NCBI GenBank assembly: GCA_022709525.1
Contig: JAKLIQ010000001.1
Coordinates: 3,797 to 67,796 of the forward strand
Length of the DNA: 64,000 nucleotides
Origin: Candidatus Omnitrophota bacterium
Lineage (GTDB): Bacteria; Omnitrophota; Omnitrophia; Omnitrophales; Aquincolibacteriaceae
Reading direction: 5' to 3'
Shown here one piece after another: positions 3,824 through 53,753 of the stretch (positions are counted from its first letter, which is position 1; every line of letters starts with the position of its first letter). The notes beneath the pieces are model-generated. The model did no database searches. It was not told the DNA's origin and worked only from the letters and a program-made list of their open reading frames with translations. The position numbers were made by a program, and so were the translations under genes.

Positions 3824-4024
3824 GTGGAAAAATATAAATGCCCGGTTTGCGGGGAGGAAATGGAACATGATCTGATGGTCTTCTTGAAGCATACCGACCA
3901 TCACATCATCGACATTATCTTGAAAGAGCATCCCCAGTGGGTGCACGGGGACGGGATCTGCCGGGAATGTCTGGATTATTACAAGAAGAGCATGGGTCAT
4001 ACTTCCTACATGGACGAGCTCTGA
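3824..4024 (+). CDS. small zinc-ribbon protein (CxxC…CxxC)
   Basis: 66 aa: MEKYKCPVCGEEM…GICRECLDYY has two CxxC pairs. Confidence 0.45.
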   Translation: MEKYKCPVCGEEMEHDLMVFLKHTDHHIIDIILKEHPQWVHGDGICRECLDYYKKSMGHTSYMDEL

Positions 4025-4057: not shown

Positions 4058-4510
4058 TTGATGAAGAAGTTCTGGGTCGGCGGTGTTTTGTTTTTTTCTT
4101 TCGTGCTTGCGGGAGGGCCGGTTCCGGCGGTTTTGGCCGCTGAGGATCTGCCGCCTCTTGAGACCTCCCAGGCCTATCAGGACTTCCTCAAAAAACCTTC
4201 AAGCGATCTTTCAAAGATGATCTGTGTCCTGAACTATTTCAGGACGACGCCGCTCATCGTCCAGTATGACGGGATCGATTATACGGTCCAGTTCGCGTAT
4301 CCCTATGGCCTTGTGTACCTGATGACAAATTATCGTAATGAGCGTCCGGAAGAATGGGCAAAGAAACATTGTTACCGTTCGCTTTTTGGAAATAACATCA
4401 TTTTTTTTAAATTCGAGGACGGCAGTTACCGTCCGGCTCGCGATGTGATCATCGAGAAATTCCATGAGCTTGAAGAAGCTCTGAAGAAACAAGCGTCCGG
4501 GACTTTTTGA
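4058..4510 (+). CDS. secreted hypothetical protein
   Basis: N-terminal signal-like segment MMKKFWVGGVLFFSFVLAGGPVPAVLAAED; 150 aa. Confidence 0.5.
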   Translation: MMKKFWVGGVLFFSFVLAGGPVPAVLAAEDLPPLETSQAYQDFLKKPSSDLSKMICVLNYFRTTPLIVQYDGIDYTVQFAYPYGLVYLMTNYRNERPEEWAKKHCYRSLFGNNIIFFKFEDGSYRPARDVIIEKFHELEEALKKQASGTF

Positions 4511-29045: not shown

Positions 29046-29120
29046 CGGGACTCGTTTCTAGGGACTCGAAAAACAAGACATAAAGTGAGTCCCTAGTCCC
29101 GAGAGACAAGTCCCAATCTT
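29046..29120. repeat. REP-like GGGACTCG inverted-repeat element, copy 2
   Basis: CGGGACTCGTTTCTAGGGACTCG…GAGTCCCTAGTCCCGAGAGACAAGTCCC after the yjbQ stop. Confidence 0.7.
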
Positions 29121-42309: not shown

Positions 42310-43740
42310 ATGCTTTCTCCGAGGAGGAAAAGGGTTAGACTGATGACCATGATGATAAAGAAGATGGCAGCTCTTTTTTTAGTTTTTTGCCTCTTGCCGG
42401 GGCCGGCGGCTTTCGCGGAAGGACCTTCCGTGAAAGCCGGCGTTCCGGTGATGACTTTCCTTGATTGTTACAGGAAAGTGCTCGCGCATTATCCCGGGCT
42501 CCGGAAGCGCTATGAGCAGTTGGAGCAGGCCAAAGCCCAGCGCAATCTTGCGATCGCAGACCTTTTCCCCAAAGTCCGCGGCGTTTTCGGGATGGAAACT
42601 TCCGATGATCCCGTTTTTGTTTTCGGAAGCCTCCTCCGGCAAAAGTCCTTCACGGAACAGAATTTCGAGCTCAATTCGCTCAACACCCCTCGCCACCGGA
42701 CAAATTATCATTTCGGGATCGAAGGCGATATGCTGCTTTTTGATTCGTTCAATACGATCTCGAAGATCCGTTCCGCGCGCCGGCTTGTGAAGTCCGCGGA
42801 CCTTCAGGCGGATTTCACGGAAATGGAAGCCGGGATCCTGACGCTTGAAAGCTATCTCGGCATCCTGCTCGCGAGGGAGCTTTACAACATCGCGGTCGAG
42901 GTGAAGAACGCCTCCGATAAGGACCTCCAGCAAGCCAAGGACCTGAATGAAAAGGGTATGATCTTGGGCGCCGATTATTACGCCGCCAAGGTGACCGCGG
43001 CGGGCATTGAACGGGAAGTGAACCGCCTCCAGGGCCTTCTTAAAAGTTCCCGGATGCTCATGAATATCCTGATGGGGGAGGATCCGGAACTTGTTTGGGA
43101 TGCCGTCGGAAGTTTTCCGGACACGGTTCAGGAAAAGGGAGCGCTTCAAGAGTGGCTCGCGCAGGCCTATCAAAAACGATCGGACCTCGCCGCTATCGGC
43201 CAAATGCTCGACGCGCAGCGCATCGAATCGCTCCGCCAGAAGACTTCTTTCCTTCCAAAATTCTACGGCTTCGGCAGTTTGGACGAGAACAGCCACGACT
43301 GGCATACCGGCGGGCAGAGCTTTTCGCTCGGCGTCAAAGGGACCATGGATTTTTTTGACCCCAGTTATCCCGGCCGCGTCAAAGGGGCTAACGCGCAATA
43401 TAGGGAACTCAAGGCCGAACGCGACGCCCTGCGCGACGAGATCGTGAAGGGGCTCATTCAGGAGATGACCCGCTATGAGACCGTGGCCGCCGATACGCCT
43501 GTGATGAAGTCGGCTTACGCGGACGCGAAACAGGCCTCGGAACTGACGGCCAAACTATATCAGGAAGGGCGGAAATCGATCGCCGATCTTCTGGAGATGC
43601 GTCGCGGTTATTTTGAAACGGCAGCGGGGTTTCAAAGCCTTCTCCTGGCGCTTGAACTCGAGTACGCGAAACTTCTTTTCCTTTCCGGCCAGTTGAACGA
43701 AGACGGCCTTCATCAGGTTAACCAAAGGCTTCAAGCATAA
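42310..43740 (+). CDS. TolC-like outer-membrane efflux protein (OEP family)
   Basis: Signal peptide, then two repeats of coiled-coil/beta-barrel OEP architecture; 476 aa. Confidence 0.7.
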   Translation: MLSPRRKRVRLMTMMIKKMAALFLVFCLLPGPAAFAEGPSVKAGVPVMTFLDCYRKVLAHYPGLRKRYEQLEQAKAQRNLAIADLFPKVRGVFGMETSDDPVFVFGSLLRQKSFTEQNFELNSLNTPRHRTNYHFGIEGDMLLFDSFNTISKIRSARRLVKSADLQADFTEMEAGILTLESYLGILLARELYNIAVEVKNASDKDLQQAKDLNEKGMILGADYYAAKVTAAGIEREVNRLQGLLKSSRMLMNILMGEDPELVWDAVGSFPDTVQEKGALQEWLAQAYQKRSDLAAIGQMLDAQRIESLRQKTSFLPKFYGFGSLDENSHDWHTGGQSFSLGVKGTMDFFDPSYPGRVKGANAQYRELKAERDALRDEIVKGLIQEMTRYETVAADTPVMKSAYADAKQASELTAKLYQEGRKSIADLLEMRRGYFETAAGFQSLLLALELEYAKLLFLSGQLNEDGLHQVNQRLQA

Positions 43741-46700: not shown

Positions 46701-46974
46701 GCGGAATTCCATTATCCTTGTGGATTTTATCAAGCTCCGGCGCGCGGAAGGAATGCCGCTTGAAGAGGCCGTCGTCGACGCGGGCGCGAAGCGTTTCCGG
46801 CCGATGCTTTTGACAGCCGCCGCGGTAGTGGTCGGCGCTTCGGTGATCCTCTTTGACCCGATCTTTCAGGGCCTTGCCGTGGCGCTCATGGCGGGAGAGA
46901 TCGCTTCGACCATTCTTTCGCGAACGGCCGTTCCGGTGTTCTATTATATGATGGCTAAAAAAACGAGGGACTAG
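43756..46974 (+). CDS. RND-family efflux transporter permease (AcrB/CzcA-like)
   Basis: 1072 aa, 12 TM, with two large periplasmic loops. Conserved …FSIGILVDDPIV… and …GIVVRNSIILVDF…. Confidence 0.85.
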   Translation: MTSHHSDIISGIVSYFAKSKITPLVIAVSLIIGVFAVINLPREEEPQISVPMFDIFVSYPGADSKEVEQRIVTLGERKLWEIPGVEYIYSTIEPEGALIIVRFKVGEDVEKSLIKLYTKVYSNLDFLPKDASQPLIKIRSIDDVPILTLTFYGKDKNAVALRKTVANIQNIVNAIPDVSDTSITGGRKRQFQVFFDEEKLKARLLNPLEVAEIIRSANIKQNAGHLESAPELESVEANSFFKTKTDLENLVVGVSAGSVVTLKDIAKVIDGPDEEERMTEIFFGPASKTKDKGPFEAVTLSISKRKGANAAHLSEVILHTIRELPEATLPKHIEMTVTRDYGETAKEKSDELLFHMAIAVFGVSVLIAWALGLRESGVVGIAIPMTLALTLATFYFLGFTLNRITLFALIFSIGILVDDPIVDVENIVRHLRLPGNKGKSILDITIEAVNEVRSPLILATLTVIAAILPMAFVRGLMGPYMRPIPIGASAAMMFSMFVAFVATPWAAYQILGRAFAQGKLKAHHEGEKEDFLTRLYRSYMNPLIYNKKVRKAFLIGLGALLGLSVLLVPLKLVRVKMLPFDNKNEFQVILNMPDGTPVEKTKKAITEIAGYLATVPEVKDIELYAGSPAPYNFNGLVRHYFLRTKPYQADLQVNLTGKHHRKRQSHDIAKAVRPKIHEIVKKYGGHVQVAEVPPGPPVLSTLVLEIYGPSRDGQAELNKAIEGLLASSEGVTDIDTYLQAPEKLARLHINTEKASLNGIPASQISAAITAALDGKVVDLAHLSEEYEPVEILLRLPKEKRAALDNVLNMTLLSRYGNPIPVRELVNVEKDTKDPAIYHKNLMRVSYVIADVAGRYESPVYAILKLKKEIAKMPAPPNHEGQKTLDQIFTRQPATTDRWTVKWDGEWQITYEVFRDLGIAFAFVLLLIYALVVGWFQSFKTPWIIMLPIPLTLIGILPAHWLGGVFFTATSMIGMIAGAGIVVRNSIILVDFIKLRRAEGMPLEEAVVDAGAKRFRPMLLTAAAVVVGASVILFDPIFQGLAVALMAGEIASTILSRTAVPVFYYMMAKKTRD

Positions 46975-47033
46975 GGACTCGCTCCTCGTCAAGGGCTTTT
47001 ACGAGTCCCGAGGGACAAGTCCCGAGTCCCGCT
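46975..47033. repeat. REP-like GGGACTCG inverted-repeat element, copy 3
   Basis: GGGACTAGGGACTCGCTCCTCG…ACGAGTCCCGAGGGACAAGTCCCGAGTCCC immediately after the RND gene stop. Confidence 0.7.
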
Positions 47034-50972: not shown

Positions 50973-52493
50973 ATGAACTACGAACCAGTCATTGGACTAG
51001 AAGTCCACGTACAGCTGAAGACGAAGAGCAAGATGTTCTGCGCTTGTTCCACGGAATTCGGTGTGGAAGGCAATAAGAACACATGTCCGGTGTGTCTCGG
51101 CTGGCCGGGATCGCTGCCGGTGGTGAATGAAACAGCGCTCAAGCTCGCGATCCGCGCGGGGCTAGCTCTCAATTGCAAAGTCGCAGAGCGGCTCAAGTTC
51201 GACCGGAAAAATTATTTCTATCCTGATCTTCCGAAAGCGTATCAGATCTCGCAATACGATATGCCGGTAAATGGGAAGGGGTTTGTGGATGTGGAAACCC
51301 AGACTACAGACCACAGACTACAGACCACAGCAAAAAACGAAAAAGAGCAAAGCGAAAAACAAAACTCCGAACTCCTTGCTCCTCGCTCTACGCTAAAAAG
51401 AATCGGGATCACGCGTGCGCACCTGGAAGAAGACGCCGGAAAACTTCTGCACGAGGGCATCGCGGACGGAAGCCTTGTCGATTACAACCGCGGCGGCATC
51501 CCGCTTCTTGAGATCGTCTCCGAGCCGGACCTCCGCAGCCCGCAGGAAGCGTACGATTACCTCACGGCGCTCAAGGCCATCCTTCAATATATAGAAGTGA
51601 GCGACTGCGATATGGAAAAGGGGAGTTTGCGCTGCGACGCGAACGTGTCCGTCCGGCCCGTAAGCCAGGAGAAATTCGGGACCAAGGTCGAGATCAAGAA
51701 CCTGAACTCCTTCAAGATGGTGCAGAAAGCGATCCAGTACGAGATCGAGCGGCAGACGGGGATCCTTGAAGATAAAGAAGCCGTTATCCAGGAAACGCGG
51801 CTTTGGGAGGACAAAAAAGGCGTGACGGTCTCGATGCGTTCCAAGGAAGAGGCGCACGACTACCGCTATTTTCCGGAGCCGGACCTTGTGCCGTTCACGT
51901 TGTCGCGCAAGACCGTGGAGGAGATCAAAAAGACACTGCCGGAGCTGCCCCTTGAGAGGGCGAAACGGTTCGTGAAAACCTTCGGCATTTCCGAATATGA
52001 CGCACAGGTCCTTTGTCAGGAGAAAAAACTCGCCGAATATTTTGAGGCATGCGTCAAAGAGGGCGCCGCCGCGAAATCCGCAAGCAACTGGATCCAGTCC
52101 GAGATCTTGGCCATTCTTAATGAAAAAAATTTATCCGTCGAAAATTTTCCGATCACAGCGGCAAGCACCGCAGGAACGATCCGCCTTATTGAAAAGGGAG
52201 CCATCAGCGGCAAGATCGCCAAAGAAGTTTACCGTGAAATGTTTGAGACCGGCAAAGACGCCGAAACGATCGTCAAAGAAAAAGGCCTGACGCAGGTCTC
52301 CGACACCGGTTTAATTGAAAAAGCCGTGGAAAAAGCCATCGCCGCGAACCCCGCCGCCGCCCAGGAATTCAAGGCCGGAAAACAAAAGGCCCTCGGCGCC
52401 CTGGTCGGTTTTGTGATGAAAGAGACCGCCGGCAAAGCCAATCCGAAGCTTGTTAATGAAATTCTCATTAACAAGCTCGGGACTCGTAGCTAG
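50973..52493 (+). CDS. gatB: Asp/Glu-tRNA amidotransferase subunit B (with an in-frame repeat-derived insertion)
   Basis: MNYEPVIGLEVHVQLKT.SKMFC…ISQYD…KRIGITRAHLEEDAGKL…. About 28 extra residues (TQTTDHRLQTTAKNEKEQSEKQNSELLAPRSTL) lie where B. subtilis GatB has VGGKT. Confidence 0.9.
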   Translation: MNYEPVIGLEVHVQLKTKSKMFCACSTEFGVEGNKNTCPVCLGWPGSLPVVNETALKLAIRAGLALNCKVAERLKFDRKNYFYPDLPKAYQISQYDMPVNGKGFVDVETQTTDHRLQTTAKNEKEQSEKQNSELLAPRSTLKRIGITRAHLEEDAGKLLHEGIADGSLVDYNRGGIPLLEIVSEPDLRSPQEAYDYLTALKAILQYIEVSDCDMEKGSLRCDANVSVRPVSQEKFGTKVEIKNLNSFKMVQKAIQYEIERQTGILEDKEAVIQETRLWEDKKGVTVSMRSKEEAHDYRYFPEPDLVPFTLSRKTVEEIKKTLPELPLERAKRFVKTFGISEYDAQVLCQEKKLAEYFEACVKEGAAAKSASNWIQSEILAILNEKNLSVENFPITAASTAGTIRLIEKGAISGKIAKEVYREMFETGKDAETIVKEKGLTQVSDTGLIEKAVEKAIAANPAAAQEFKAGKQKALGALVGFVMKETAGKANPKLVNEILINKLGTRS

Positions 52494-52600
52494 GGACTCG
52501 CCCCTCGTGAAGCAGATCAAGAAACATCGCTCGGACCTCGGGACTCGGGACTTACTTTTTAAAAAACGAGGAACTAGTCCCGAACAACGAGTCCCGCGAG
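52480..52600. repeat. REP-like GGGACTCG elements, tandem copy 4 (two units) overlapping the gatB stop codon
   Basis: CTCGGGACTCGTAGCTAGGGACTCGCCCCTCG…CTCGGGACTCGGGACTTAC…ACTAGTCCCGAACAACGAGTCCCGCGAGG. The gatB TAG lies inside the first unit. Confidence 0.7.
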
Positions 52601-52608
52601 GATCAGCT

Positions 52609-53673
52609 ATGCTGACCCTCGGTATCGAAACCTCCTGCGACGAGACTTCGTGCGCTGTTTTAAAAGGCAAGGACACGATCCTCTCGAACATTGTTTCCTC
52701 CAGTCTCTTCCGGCATAAAAAATTCGGCGGCGTCGTGCCCGAGATCGCGTCGCGGCACTGCATGGAGCAAATCGAATGCGTTTTTCATGAAGCGGTTCGA
52801 CAAGCTCACTGCAAGCCCTCCGATTTGGATTTGATCGCTGTGACGCAGGGGCCGGGGCTTATCGGCTCGCTCCTTGTCGGCGTCGCGTTCGCCAAATCGC
52901 TCGCCTACCAGCTCGGGATCCCGCTTGTGGGCGTCAATCACATGGAAGCTCATCTTGTCGCGAATTTTTTTGGAACCCCCGAGCCCAAACGCTTTATCGG
53001 GCTTCTTGTTTCGGGCGGGCACACGATGCTCACATTTTCCGAAAAAGGGAAGATCCATATCCTTGGCGAGACGATCGATGACGCGGTGGGCGAAGCGTAT
53101 GACAAGGTCGCGAAGATTATGGGGCTAAGCTACCCCGGCGGGCCCATCATTGATAAACTTGCGAGAGAAGGAAACCCGCGCGCTGTTCATTTCACGCGGC
53201 CCAAGCAGGAAGCGCGTTTCGGATTCAGCTTCAGCGGCGTGAAGACGGCCGTCCTTTATCTTGTTCAGGGTTTTAAAAAAACCCCCTCACCTTTATCCTC
53301 TCCCCCTTGCAAAAGGGGGAGAGGGGAGGGTGAGGGGGCGATAAAGAAGAGGTTGGGTGTTTCAACCATCAAAGATCTCGCGGCGAGTTTCCAACACGCG
53401 GTGATCGGATGGCTCGTGGAAAAGGCCATCGACGCGGCGGAATTTAAAAAAGTCAAAGATATCGTCGTAGGCGGCGGCGTGAGTGCCAATTCTTATTTGC
53501 GCGAGAAACTTACGCGGGATGCGGCGGCCAAGGGAATCAAGGTCTGGTTCCCGCCGTTCGAATTTTCGACGGATAACGCAGCCATGATCGCGCGCCGGGG
53601 GTTTGAGCTTTACCAACGGGGAAAACGGTCGAAACTTAATATGACCGGTGATCCGGGATTGACGATTTCATAA
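52609..53673 (+). CDS. tsaD: tRNA N6-adenosine threonylcarbamoyltransferase (with an in-frame palindromic insertion)
   Basis: MLTLGIETSCDETS.AV…VTQGPGLIGSLLVG…GGV.AN..LR. The extra loop TPSPLSSPPCKRGRGEGEGAIKKRLGVS is encoded by a GC-rich palindrome at about 53281-53340. Confidence 0.9.
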   Translation: MLTLGIETSCDETSCAVLKGKDTILSNIVSSSLFRHKKFGGVVPEIASRHCMEQIECVFHEAVRQAHCKPSDLDLIAVTQGPGLIGSLLVGVAFAKSLAYQLGIPLVGVNHMEAHLVANFFGTPEPKRFIGLLVSGGHTMLTFSEKGKIHILGETIDDAVGEAYDKVAKIMGLSYPGGPIIDKLAREGNPRAVHFTRPKQEARFGFSFSGVKTAVLYLVQGFKKTPSPLSSPPCKRGRGEGEGAIKKRLGVSTIKDLAASFQHAVIGWLVEKAIDAAEFKKVKDIVVGGGVSANSYLREKLTRDAAAKGIKVWFPPFEFSTDNAAMIARRGFELYQRGKRSKLNMTGDPGLTIS

Positions 53674-53753
53674 CCCCTTACCACACCCGGTGTGTACACG
53701 AGCGTACACACCGGGTGTGAACAGGGTGTACGGATGCTAAAAGGGAGGTTTTT

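Follow-up and report, generated by a model that had tools for sequence, protein, structure and literature searches.

A BoxC/PIT/TM_ECO-type hairpin repeat, probably an in-frame passenger in a permissive loop of tsaD in an Omnitrophota bacterium

Within a stretch of 64,000 nucleotides (nt) of DNA from a Candidatus Omnitrophota bacterium (contig JAKLIQ010000001.1), which we call the window, there is a G+C-rich hairpin lying inside the coding sequence of tsaD. Judged by its sequence, the hairpin is a 'double' motif variant of the BoxC/PIT/TM_ECO family of repeats. It is a copy of a dispersed repeat of this type that has been inserted in-frame, and we consider it probable that it is carried as a neutral or slightly deleterious passenger in a permissive loop rather than as a functional module.

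The open reading frame (ORF) at 52609-53673 is TsaD by its match to Pfam PF00814 (E = 4e-89), and the closest relatives of solved structure are the TsaD proteins of T. maritima, A. aeolicus and E. coli. The reading frame is continuous through the element, and the columns of His111, His115 and Asp322, which we take to correspond to the metal-binding residues of TsaD, are invariant in the alignment. A preliminary description of this DNA had placed a nested GC-rich inverted repeat inside tsaD with the reading frame preserved. Both points are borne out, with the extent of the repeat corrected to 57 nt (53282-53338).

The element is a two-tier palindrome in the order CCCCCTCACC-TTTAT-CCTCTCCCCC-TTGCAAAA-GGGGGAGAGG-GGAG-GGTGAGGGGG. 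It has a G+C content of ~70%, starting with CCCCC and ending with GGGGG. The outer arms (10 nt, 53282-53291 and 53329-53338) and the inner arms (12 nt, 53297-53308 and 53313-53324) are both 100% complementary. Folding 101 nt around the element as RNA gave -59.3 kcal/mol with z = -7.0, and none of 200 shuffled sequences was as stable. When 70-nt segments were scanned along the whole 64 kb, the tsaD element was the top fold of the window, with -53 kcal/mol and z = -6.6. Four of the six reading frames through the element are open. Four runs of three or more G, spaced 1-7 nt apart, generate a G-quadruplex (G4) motif on the + strand, with no match on the - strand, and folding of this motif would be in competition with the hairpin of -59 kcal/mol.

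No intrinsic terminator was found on the + strand, where the hairpin is followed by CGATAAAG with no T-run, and the terminator and promoter scan made no call. On the - strand, TTTTTTT directly follows the two-tier hairpin (window 53271-53281), so that it resembles a strong antisense intrinsic terminator. This was not called by the scan, possibly owing to the internal bulge, and there is no minus-strand gene nearby. An Rfam search of the tsaD region returned nothing beyond sub-threshold noise from microRNA hairpins.

The limits of the insertion are defined by comparison with orthologues, using the best 120 TsaD sequences from Candidatus Omnitrophica/Omnitrophota for alignment of the loop. Relatives at 72-88% identity have a loop reading ...Y-x3-D-(P/F)KTGKPxPxAPSxK-D(I/L/M)AASFQ, and that of the window TsaD reads ...YLVQGFKK-TPSPLSSPPCKRGRGEGEGA-IKKRLGVSTIK-DLAASFQ. 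A neighbor-joining (NJ) tree calculated with the loop masked places the window TsaD deep within a clade of ~45 sequences. The segment has 19 residues throughout this clade except in P0001, which has its own insert of 7 residues; the window sequence alone has 39. Because it is nested within a clade of constant length, the insertion is derived, and the net gain is exactly 20 codons (53281-53340) and not the ~25 amino acids first suggested. At the DNA level the orthologue L128 (82% identical) has no palindrome at this position, and its loop folds with just -2.7 kcal/mol. The segment IKKRLGVS that follows the insertion fills the position of the normal loop of the clade. It may be diverged sequence or a decayed remnant of the flank of the element.

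The identical protein is encoded on 8 contigs, and five loci that we fetched, from five samples, are 100% identical across 171 nt around the element. These come from JGI, ENA and Logan records, and the contig names point to SPAdes-style and MEGAHIT-style assemblies. GC-rich hairpins are hard for short-read assemblers, which is the ground on which an assembly or chimera artefact might be suspected. The identity of the five loci across JGI, ENA and Logan assemblies, with the same protein on 8 contigs, leaves such an artefact a negligible probability. A search of the JGI metagenomes for an empty site, in which the flanks are joined with a gap of 0-30 nt, gave no match. The 90% cluster of the protein contains the protein itself and an entry of 144 residues, with no full-length allele lacking the insert.

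The structure of the protein was modeled with AlphaFold2 from 68 aligned sequences, giving a mean predicted local distance difference test score (pLDDT) of 85 and a predicted template modeling score (pTM) of 0.84. Compared with solved TsaD structures, the model has a template modeling (TM) score of ~0.75. Residues 225-240 are coil in the model and residues 241-248 form a short helix of low confidence, and the mean pLDDT in successive 10-residue blocks over residues 221-250 is 59, 48 and 58. The insert is flanked by helices that are modeled with confidence, at residues 209-224 and 251-279. On alignment with the T. maritima TsaD using HMMER the match splits at residues 222/254, and T. maritima has ~4 residues there. 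The insertion lies in the hypervariable connection that runs from the helix following the SGxKT strand to the D(I/L/M)AASFQ helix, and across Omnitrophota TsaD proteins the length of this loop ranges from almost none to more than 50 extra residues. The low-confidence coil and the variation in loop length among TsaD proteins indicate that the site is permissive. The insert is probably translated as a disordered loop of 20 residues rich in Pro, Ser, Gly, Arg and Glu, which, judged from the fold, would lie at the surface, away from the interface with TsaB and TsaE. The insert in P0001 (82% identity by BLASTP), NLPAGRQ, is a separate one in the same loop, which again speaks for a permissive site.

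According to Holder et al. 2015 (PMC4666352), BoxC of E. coli, PIT (potential intrastrand triplex) and TM_ECO are one and the same, a set of class II purine triplex motifs rich in G/C. The TM_ECO pattern is CCCTCNCCC-N3-6-GGGNGAGGG-N3-GGGNGAGGG, and 3,610 copies are distributed over 262 proteobacterial genomes. In E. coli K-12 the copies are always intergenic, with no link to transposons, phages or plasmids. BoxC/PIT has no promoter or terminator activity, and TM_ECO forms triplexes in vitro as single strands, with none detected in vivo. It is also associated with local genomic variability (all from PMC4666352).

The tsaD element resembles this family in having a CCCTCTCCC-type C-block, a GGGAGAGGG G-block and a GGGTGAGGG mirror block. 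Like BoxC/PIT/TM_ECO it has many dispersed copies with conserved stems and variable loops, no transposon, phage or transposase was found linked to it, and pairs in inverted orientation occur. On both strands of the tsaD element blocks 1 (CCTCTCCCCC) and 2 (GGGGGAGAGG) are reverse complements, and block 3 (GGTGAGGGGG) mirrors block 2 so that 10 of 10 triads are allowed (G.G:C, A.A:T, T.A:T). The first loop measures 8 nt, shrinking to 4 nt when TT/AA is taken as paired, and the second is GGAG (4 nt) on the + strand and ATAAA (5 nt) on the - strand. The element thus has the three-block architecture of the class II purine motif. Nevertheless, neither strand of the window matched the strict TM_ECO pattern, because the blocks are G5AGAG2 (10 nt) and not G3NGAG3. 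That pattern is present in 47 of the loci that we fetched, many of them from genomes that also carry the variant. The tsaD element differs from TM_ECO in having two motifs arranged around one central hairpin, as a 57-nt two-tier palindrome with the asymmetric spacers TTTAT and GGAG. While TM_ECO has been reported in Proteobacteria only, the variant occurs in ~18 phylum-level groups among the matches listed. And whereas the copies in K-12 are always intergenic, the tsaD copy lies within an ORF, as do ~5% of the copies sampled. With the block architecture shared and the strict pattern failing, we file the element as a variant of the TM_ECO family and not as a strict member.

To follow the family further, contigs representing one genome per species in GTDB were scanned with the 20-mer GGAGAGGATAAAGGTGAGGG, which is common to the copies of the window and of L126, a second TsaD locus described below. 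Exact matches were found in at least 120 genome stretches. Taking phylum-level groups from the record titles of the matches listed, there are ~18: Dehalococcoidia, Rokubacteria/Methylomirabilota, Nitrospirota, Nitrospinota, Omnitrophota, Desulfobacterota and other 'delta' groups, Binatia, Planctomycetota, Verrucomicrobiota, Clostridia/Bacillota, WOR-3, Chthonomonas, Chlorobiota, Zixibacteria, Stahlbacteria, Sumerlaeota, Uhrbacteria, Alphaproteobacteria and Burkholderiales. The expectation by chance for a 20-mer in 2 x 596 Gb is ~1 by our own arithmetic. About one-third of the genome copies listed have the full two-tier form, and the others comprise the inner hairpin with a GATAAAGGTGAGGG tail.

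Metagenomes were searched with a pattern that contains both arms and both asymmetric spacers, CCCTCACCTTTATCCTCTCCCC-N3-12-GGGGAGAGGGGAGGGTGAGGG, and at least 120 stretches match it exactly. The apical loops vary among the copies listed. The arms are exact by design of the pattern and the TTTAT/ATAAA spacer was required, so that the scans cannot gauge the conservation of the spacer; independent support for it is provided by L126, which was reached via its protein and also has ATAAA. A profile constructed from 53 metagenome copies matches the window at 53279-53354 using nhmmer, with 65.8 bits and E = 9e-20. The tsaD copy aligns to the core of the profile only, and beyond the core there is a weak tail of 16 nt to position 53354 with low posterior probability. 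No second copy of the element was found in the 64-kb window, whether by exact, 3-mismatch or profile searches.

These matches bear on the possibility that the palindrome was born locally within tsaD, by template switching or inverted duplication, with no imported repeat. Template switching during replication can generate palindromes, and the failure to find a target-site duplication would be in keeping with such an origin. But the arms together with the TTTAT and GGAG spacers occur exactly in at least 120 unrelated metagenome stretches, the profile match is highly significant at E = 9e-20, and contamination from one locus is countered by the differing flanks of the matches. A local origin is extremely unlikely, and we regard it as effectively refuted.

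Among the 85 metagenome copies with at least 150 nt of flanking sequence on both sides there are 53 whose flanks are mutually homologous. In those 53 copies the exact core is the center of a longer, AT-rich element. This spans ~140 nt and has terminal inverted repeats (TIRs) of 28 nt, TTATTGACTTTCGCATAAATAATGGAAC ... GTTCCATTACTTTTGCGAAGCTCAATAA, beyond which the loci diverge. Folded as DNA, this composite has z = -8.4, and an Rfam search with one copy gave sub-threshold microRNA-hairpin noise and no family match. At L283 the ORFs of 90 or more amino acids stop at 3997 and restart at 4361, with the composite element (~4120-4270) lying in between. The composite (L253-L372) was observed at many distinct loci in metagenomes from sediment, lake and groundwater. 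The core may be nested in a carrier that is like a MITE (miniature inverted-repeat transposable element), or the core-only copies may be deletion products of the larger element.

Some copies lie within genes. From 127 copies at genome loci, 14 are located in ORFs that extend for at least 80 codons on both sides, and ~6-7 are in genes verified by Pfam, which is the ~5% intragenic fraction of sampled copies given above. Inspection and Pfam place the in-frame copies, in the housekeeping genes of other phyla given in Table 1, between or within domains. The other ORFs that span copies look like spurious Arg/Pro-rich frames.

The TsaD loop itself has been colonized repeatedly. L126 (P0083, an Omnitrophota TsaD of 63% identity) has CCCCCTCACCCTTCCCTCTCCCCC-AGAAT-GGGGGAGAGGATAAAGGTGAGGGGG in the same loop; this is the window element in reverse complement, apart from one mismatch in the arm and a different apical loop. 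In the TsaD of L249 (P0081) the loop holds yet another copy of this family, the third, placed elsewhere in the loop. Three further Omnitrophota TsaD proteins, L250 (P0106), L251 (P0087) and L252 (P0084), have three unrelated palindromic repeats in-frame in the same loop, folding with -45 to -62 kcal/mol. These start with (C)GTCATTC, CGTCATTCTGAGG or CGTCATTGCGAGG and end with ...AATGAC or ...GATGAC, and are like the CGTC class of repetitive extragenic palindromic (REP) sequences. The corresponding peptides 'IPAEAGIQ', 'HSEATG...LRMT' and 'HCEEAKPTKQS...LAMT' recur in metagenome proteins. Sister sequences in the TsaD tree differ in the presence of inserts. The occurrence of several families, in both orientations and at varied positions in the loop, points to tolerance of the site rather than sequence-specific targeting. 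Moreover, the length is a multiple of three in just 30 of the 133 non-redundant two-tier copies, yet it is so for the TsaD copies of both the window (57 nt) and L126 (54 nt), which is the pattern that a selection filter would produce.

It could be argued that the inserted peptide is an adaptive surface loop, for instance for newly contacting TsaB, TsaE, tRNA or some other partner, with the palindrome being incidental. The insert is kept in every sample of the population, and nucleic-acid binding by its charged stretch of Arg, Glu and Gly is conceivable. Yet the sequence of the peptide is set by a repeat that is found unaltered in non-coding DNA, and other TsaD proteins read the repeat in the opposite orientation to give a different peptide. 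The segment is also absent from sister lineages, and is modeled with low confidence and mostly without regular structure. We consider an adaptive loop very unlikely.

The hairpin might instead be a selected cis-acting element that tunes the expression of tsaD, with the peptide as a by-product. It could act in RNA as a ribosome pause, an RNase III site or an mRNA stabilizer, or in DNA as a hairpin, triplex or G4 switch. This would be consistent with the very stable fold of -59 kcal/mol, a G4 motif on the sense strand only, the fixation of the element, identical in the five fetched loci, and the strong conservation of the sequence of the family. However, none of the ~45 close orthologues has the element, and the family is found in either orientation, at varied positions in TsaD, in unrelated genes and mostly in intergenic DNA. 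There is no T-run on the sense strand after the hairpin, and BoxC/PIT lacks promoter and terminator activity and has given no triplex in vivo (PMC4666352). Selection for such a role seems improbable to us.

Several points weigh against a passenger repeat of the BoxC/PIT/TM_ECO type. Near-identity over ~50 nt of non-coding sequence across phyla is hard to square with a purely neutral passenger, and hints at constraint or a recognition factor. The 64-kb window holds a single copy, and activity of the element within its own genome is conjectural. No empty-site allele or polymorphism was found, so the insertion event could be old. Finally, we infer that the element is mobile from its distribution alone, and likewise only infer translation of the loop and function of the enzyme.

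Near-invariance of ~50 nt across phyla may reflect a recognition factor or very recent horizontal spread. The two-tier core could be an active pan-bacterial element, mobile or copy-templated, with conserved recognition machinery that holds ~50 nt, including TTTAT and GGAG, near-invariant across ~18 phylum-level groups. Such an element would enter coding sequences, and the TsaD loop would be a preferred site of landing or survival. We think this doubtful, though it deserves consideration; if it were true, the element would be a phylum-spanning counterpart of the Rickettsia palindromic elements (RPEs) and a recurrent source of protein loops.

For a passenger repeat, the history may be envisaged as follows. 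The copy would have entered tsaD in its own Omnitrophota lineage, after the split from the closest sampled relatives. We consider insertion by a process dependent on a hairpin or single-stranded DNA to be most likely, for which the candidate routes are a trans-acting IS200/RAYT-like activity, or template switching or gene conversion at the hairpin during replication. Survival would be explained by a length that is a multiple of three, four open frames and a hypervariable landing site, and this step is largely shown. The element would be a selfish or neutral passenger. More speculatively, an mRNA stem of ~26 bp might slow ribosomes or attract RNase III, and a DNA hairpin, triplex or G4-prone site might raise local instability, as reported for TM_ECO.

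We sought traces of the mode of insertion. Among 133 non-redundant copies there was no flanking direct repeat above the shuffled control for k = 2-5 that would indicate a target-site duplication. Neighboring genes were compared by all-against-all clustering of 1,936 ORFs from 240 loci. The clusters are generic families such as sensor kinases, ABC transporters and short-chain dehydrogenases/reductases, and no recurrent family of transposase-like or RAYT ORFs was found within ~4 kb of the 240 loci; a trans-acting gene may lie elsewhere in the genome.

Rickettsia and a small number of other genera are already known to have in-frame palindromic repeats in coding regions (PMC3733652, PMC10969869). 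RPEs (Ogata et al. 2000, via PMC10969869 and PMC3733652) are palindromic repeats inserted in-frame in housekeeping genes, giving an extra segment that is compatible with the fold, and the tsaD element is similar in these respects. RPEs are however AT-rich and confined to Rickettsia and relatives, whereas the tsaD element is ~70% G+C and its host is a member of the Omnitrophota. RPEs are ~100-150 bp in length, and RPE-4 and RPE-6 have a CGTC terminal tag (PMC10969869, PMC3733652). We reject identity with the RPEs, since the element is 57 nt, has no CGTC tag and has the blocks of BoxC/PIT/TM_ECO; it is set apart by size, tag and host, without comparison with an RPE consensus. The likeness to RPEs drawn in the preliminary description holds for behavior, that is a palindromic repeat in-frame, the frame kept and a coil placed between helices, and not for family, where size, tag and blocks differ.

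The GTAG and CGTC REPs (Di Nocera et al. 2013, PMC3733652) are also short stem-loops that are sometimes located within the ORFs of known proteins. The CGTC REPs lack a dedicated transposase (PMC3733652), and REPs may be nested in longer palindromes (PMC3733652) as the core is in the ~140-nt element. The tsaD element differs in having neither a GTAG nor a CGTC tag; the inserts in the TsaD loops of L250-L252, starting (C)GTCATT..., are nearer to the CGTC REP type. Bacterial MITEs are similarly non-autonomous, palindromic and dispersed, and the ~140-nt composite with its 28-nt TIRs is centered on the core. Differences are that the core is shorter than the typical 70-300 bp, and that neither a target-site duplication nor a matching insertion sequence was found. 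An intein, an intron, an integron attC site, a CRISPR repeat and a programmed frameshift site were dropped on grounds of size and sequence.

While in-frame palindromic repeats in coding regions are not new, the constancy across phyla, the finding of this family within essential genes and the recurrent colonization of the TsaD loop appear to be undescribed before. BoxC/PIT/TM_ECO has been without an assigned function since the 1990s, and for E. coli the reports place it strictly in intergenic DNA. Its range is wider than that, with a close variant that is nearly unchanged across phyla and able to reside in essential genes. The constancy of sequence across phyla calls for explanation. In-frame copies in TsaD, CarA, PrsA, QueA and others provide a natural insertion scan that flags permissive sites in enzymes. 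One TsaD loop colonized by at least four repeat families offers a system for separating the targeting of insertion from selective tolerance. There is also a pitfall for annotation, in that the recurring metagenome peptides PSPLSSP... and ...GEDKGEG are derived from repeats and are not protein motifs.

Table 1. Positions of the tsaD element and its parts, of repeats of the same family in other genes, and of further repeats. Coordinates are those of the window unless a locus is named.
Feature	Position	Strand	Basis or remark
tsaD ORF, 354 aa, host gene of the element	52609..53673	+	ORF list, Pfam, solved relatives
20-codon net insertion T225-A244, TPSPLSSPPCKRGRGEGEGA	53281..53340	+	loop alignment, DNA comparison with L128, loop-masked NJ tree, HMMER
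Two-tier palindromic core	53282..53338	.	57 nt; inverted repeats, RNA fold, nhmmer profile, exact arm matches
Outer left arm CCCCCTCACC	53282..53291	+	inverted-repeat pair I3
Asymmetric internal spacer TTTAT (ATAAA on opposite strand)	53292..53296	+	sequence reading
Inner left arm / triplex block 1 CCTCTCCCCC	53297..53306	+	inverted repeat and triplex-block check
Apical loop TTGCAAAA	53307..53314	+	TT/AA pairing possible, leaving GCAA; varies within the family
Inner right arm / triplex block 2 GGGGGAGAGG	53315..53324	+	inverted repeat and triplex-block check
Spacer GGAG	53325..53328	+	forms loop 2 of the + strand triplex motif
Outer right arm / triplex block 3 GGTGAGGGGG	53329..53338	+	pair I3; mirror of block 2
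Canonical G-quadruplex motif G5-AGA-G4-A-G3-TGA-G5	53315..53338	+ only	regular expression; predicted from sequence
Divergent loop remainder IKKRLGVS	53339..53364	+	unlike the KTGKPxPxAPS loop of the clade
carA, carbamoyl-phosphate synthase small subunit	L203, L208 (Dehalococcoidia)		same linker in both
prsA, ribose-phosphate pyrophosphokinase	L205 (Uhrbacteria)		
queA	L155 (Binatia)		
Arginase-family protein	L132		Pfam
PGM/PMM, phosphogluco/phosphomannomutase	L231		two tandem copies
Insert-bearing TsaD proteins	L250:1501-2661, L251:27-1142, L252:1501-2538		
GGGACTCG/CGAGTCCC clusters	1029-1097, 29047-29100, 46967-47030, 52479-52595		70-130-nt imperfect palindromes, -29 to -45 kcal/mol

The window contains other repeats. 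A second family, unrelated to the tsaD element, is formed by the inverted octamers GGGACTCG and CGAGTCCC in four clusters. One of these fills the spacer between gatB and tsaD, just upstream of tsaD, and another starts in the last codons of the gene of an RND transporter and continues past the end of the gene. The clusters that were checked lie outside the main genes, and this appears to be the commoner repeat of the window.

In gatB (50973-52493) there is an insert at 51300-51385, of ~27 amino acids (HRLQTTAKNEKEQSEKQNSELLAPRSTL) relative to the GatB of L126. In its DNA a 14-nt unit, CAGACTACAGACCA, is repeated in tandem (x2.2) ahead of an A-rich tract, and the fold is -8 kcal/mol. The in-frame insert in gatB that had been noted earlier is therefore present, at ~27 amino acids relative to an orthologue of 493 amino acids, but it is of a different kind, a tandem repeat and A-rich tract with no strong palindrome. 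There is weak support for the suggestion that such insertion might be a general feature of the genome: the tsaD element has one copy in 64 kb, the gatB insert is of another type, and GGGACTCG/CGAGTCCC is the commoner repeat.

Directly 3' to the stop codon of tsaD, at 53675-53726, is an inverted repeat with 23-nt arms CCCTTACCACACCCGGTGTGTAC / GTACACACCGGGTGTGAACAGGG and a fold of -39.5 kcal/mol. It is without a clear T-run, and may be the terminator of tsaD or another palindromic repeat. Finally, the palindrome GGCTTTCGCGGAAGG-ACC-TTCCGTGAAAGCC at 42405-42437 is located in an ORF at 42310-43740 that reads like an outer-membrane efflux protein. This palindrome is coding, near an N-terminal hydrophobic segment, and with a 70-nt fold of -43.8 kcal/mol it is the second strongest of the window.

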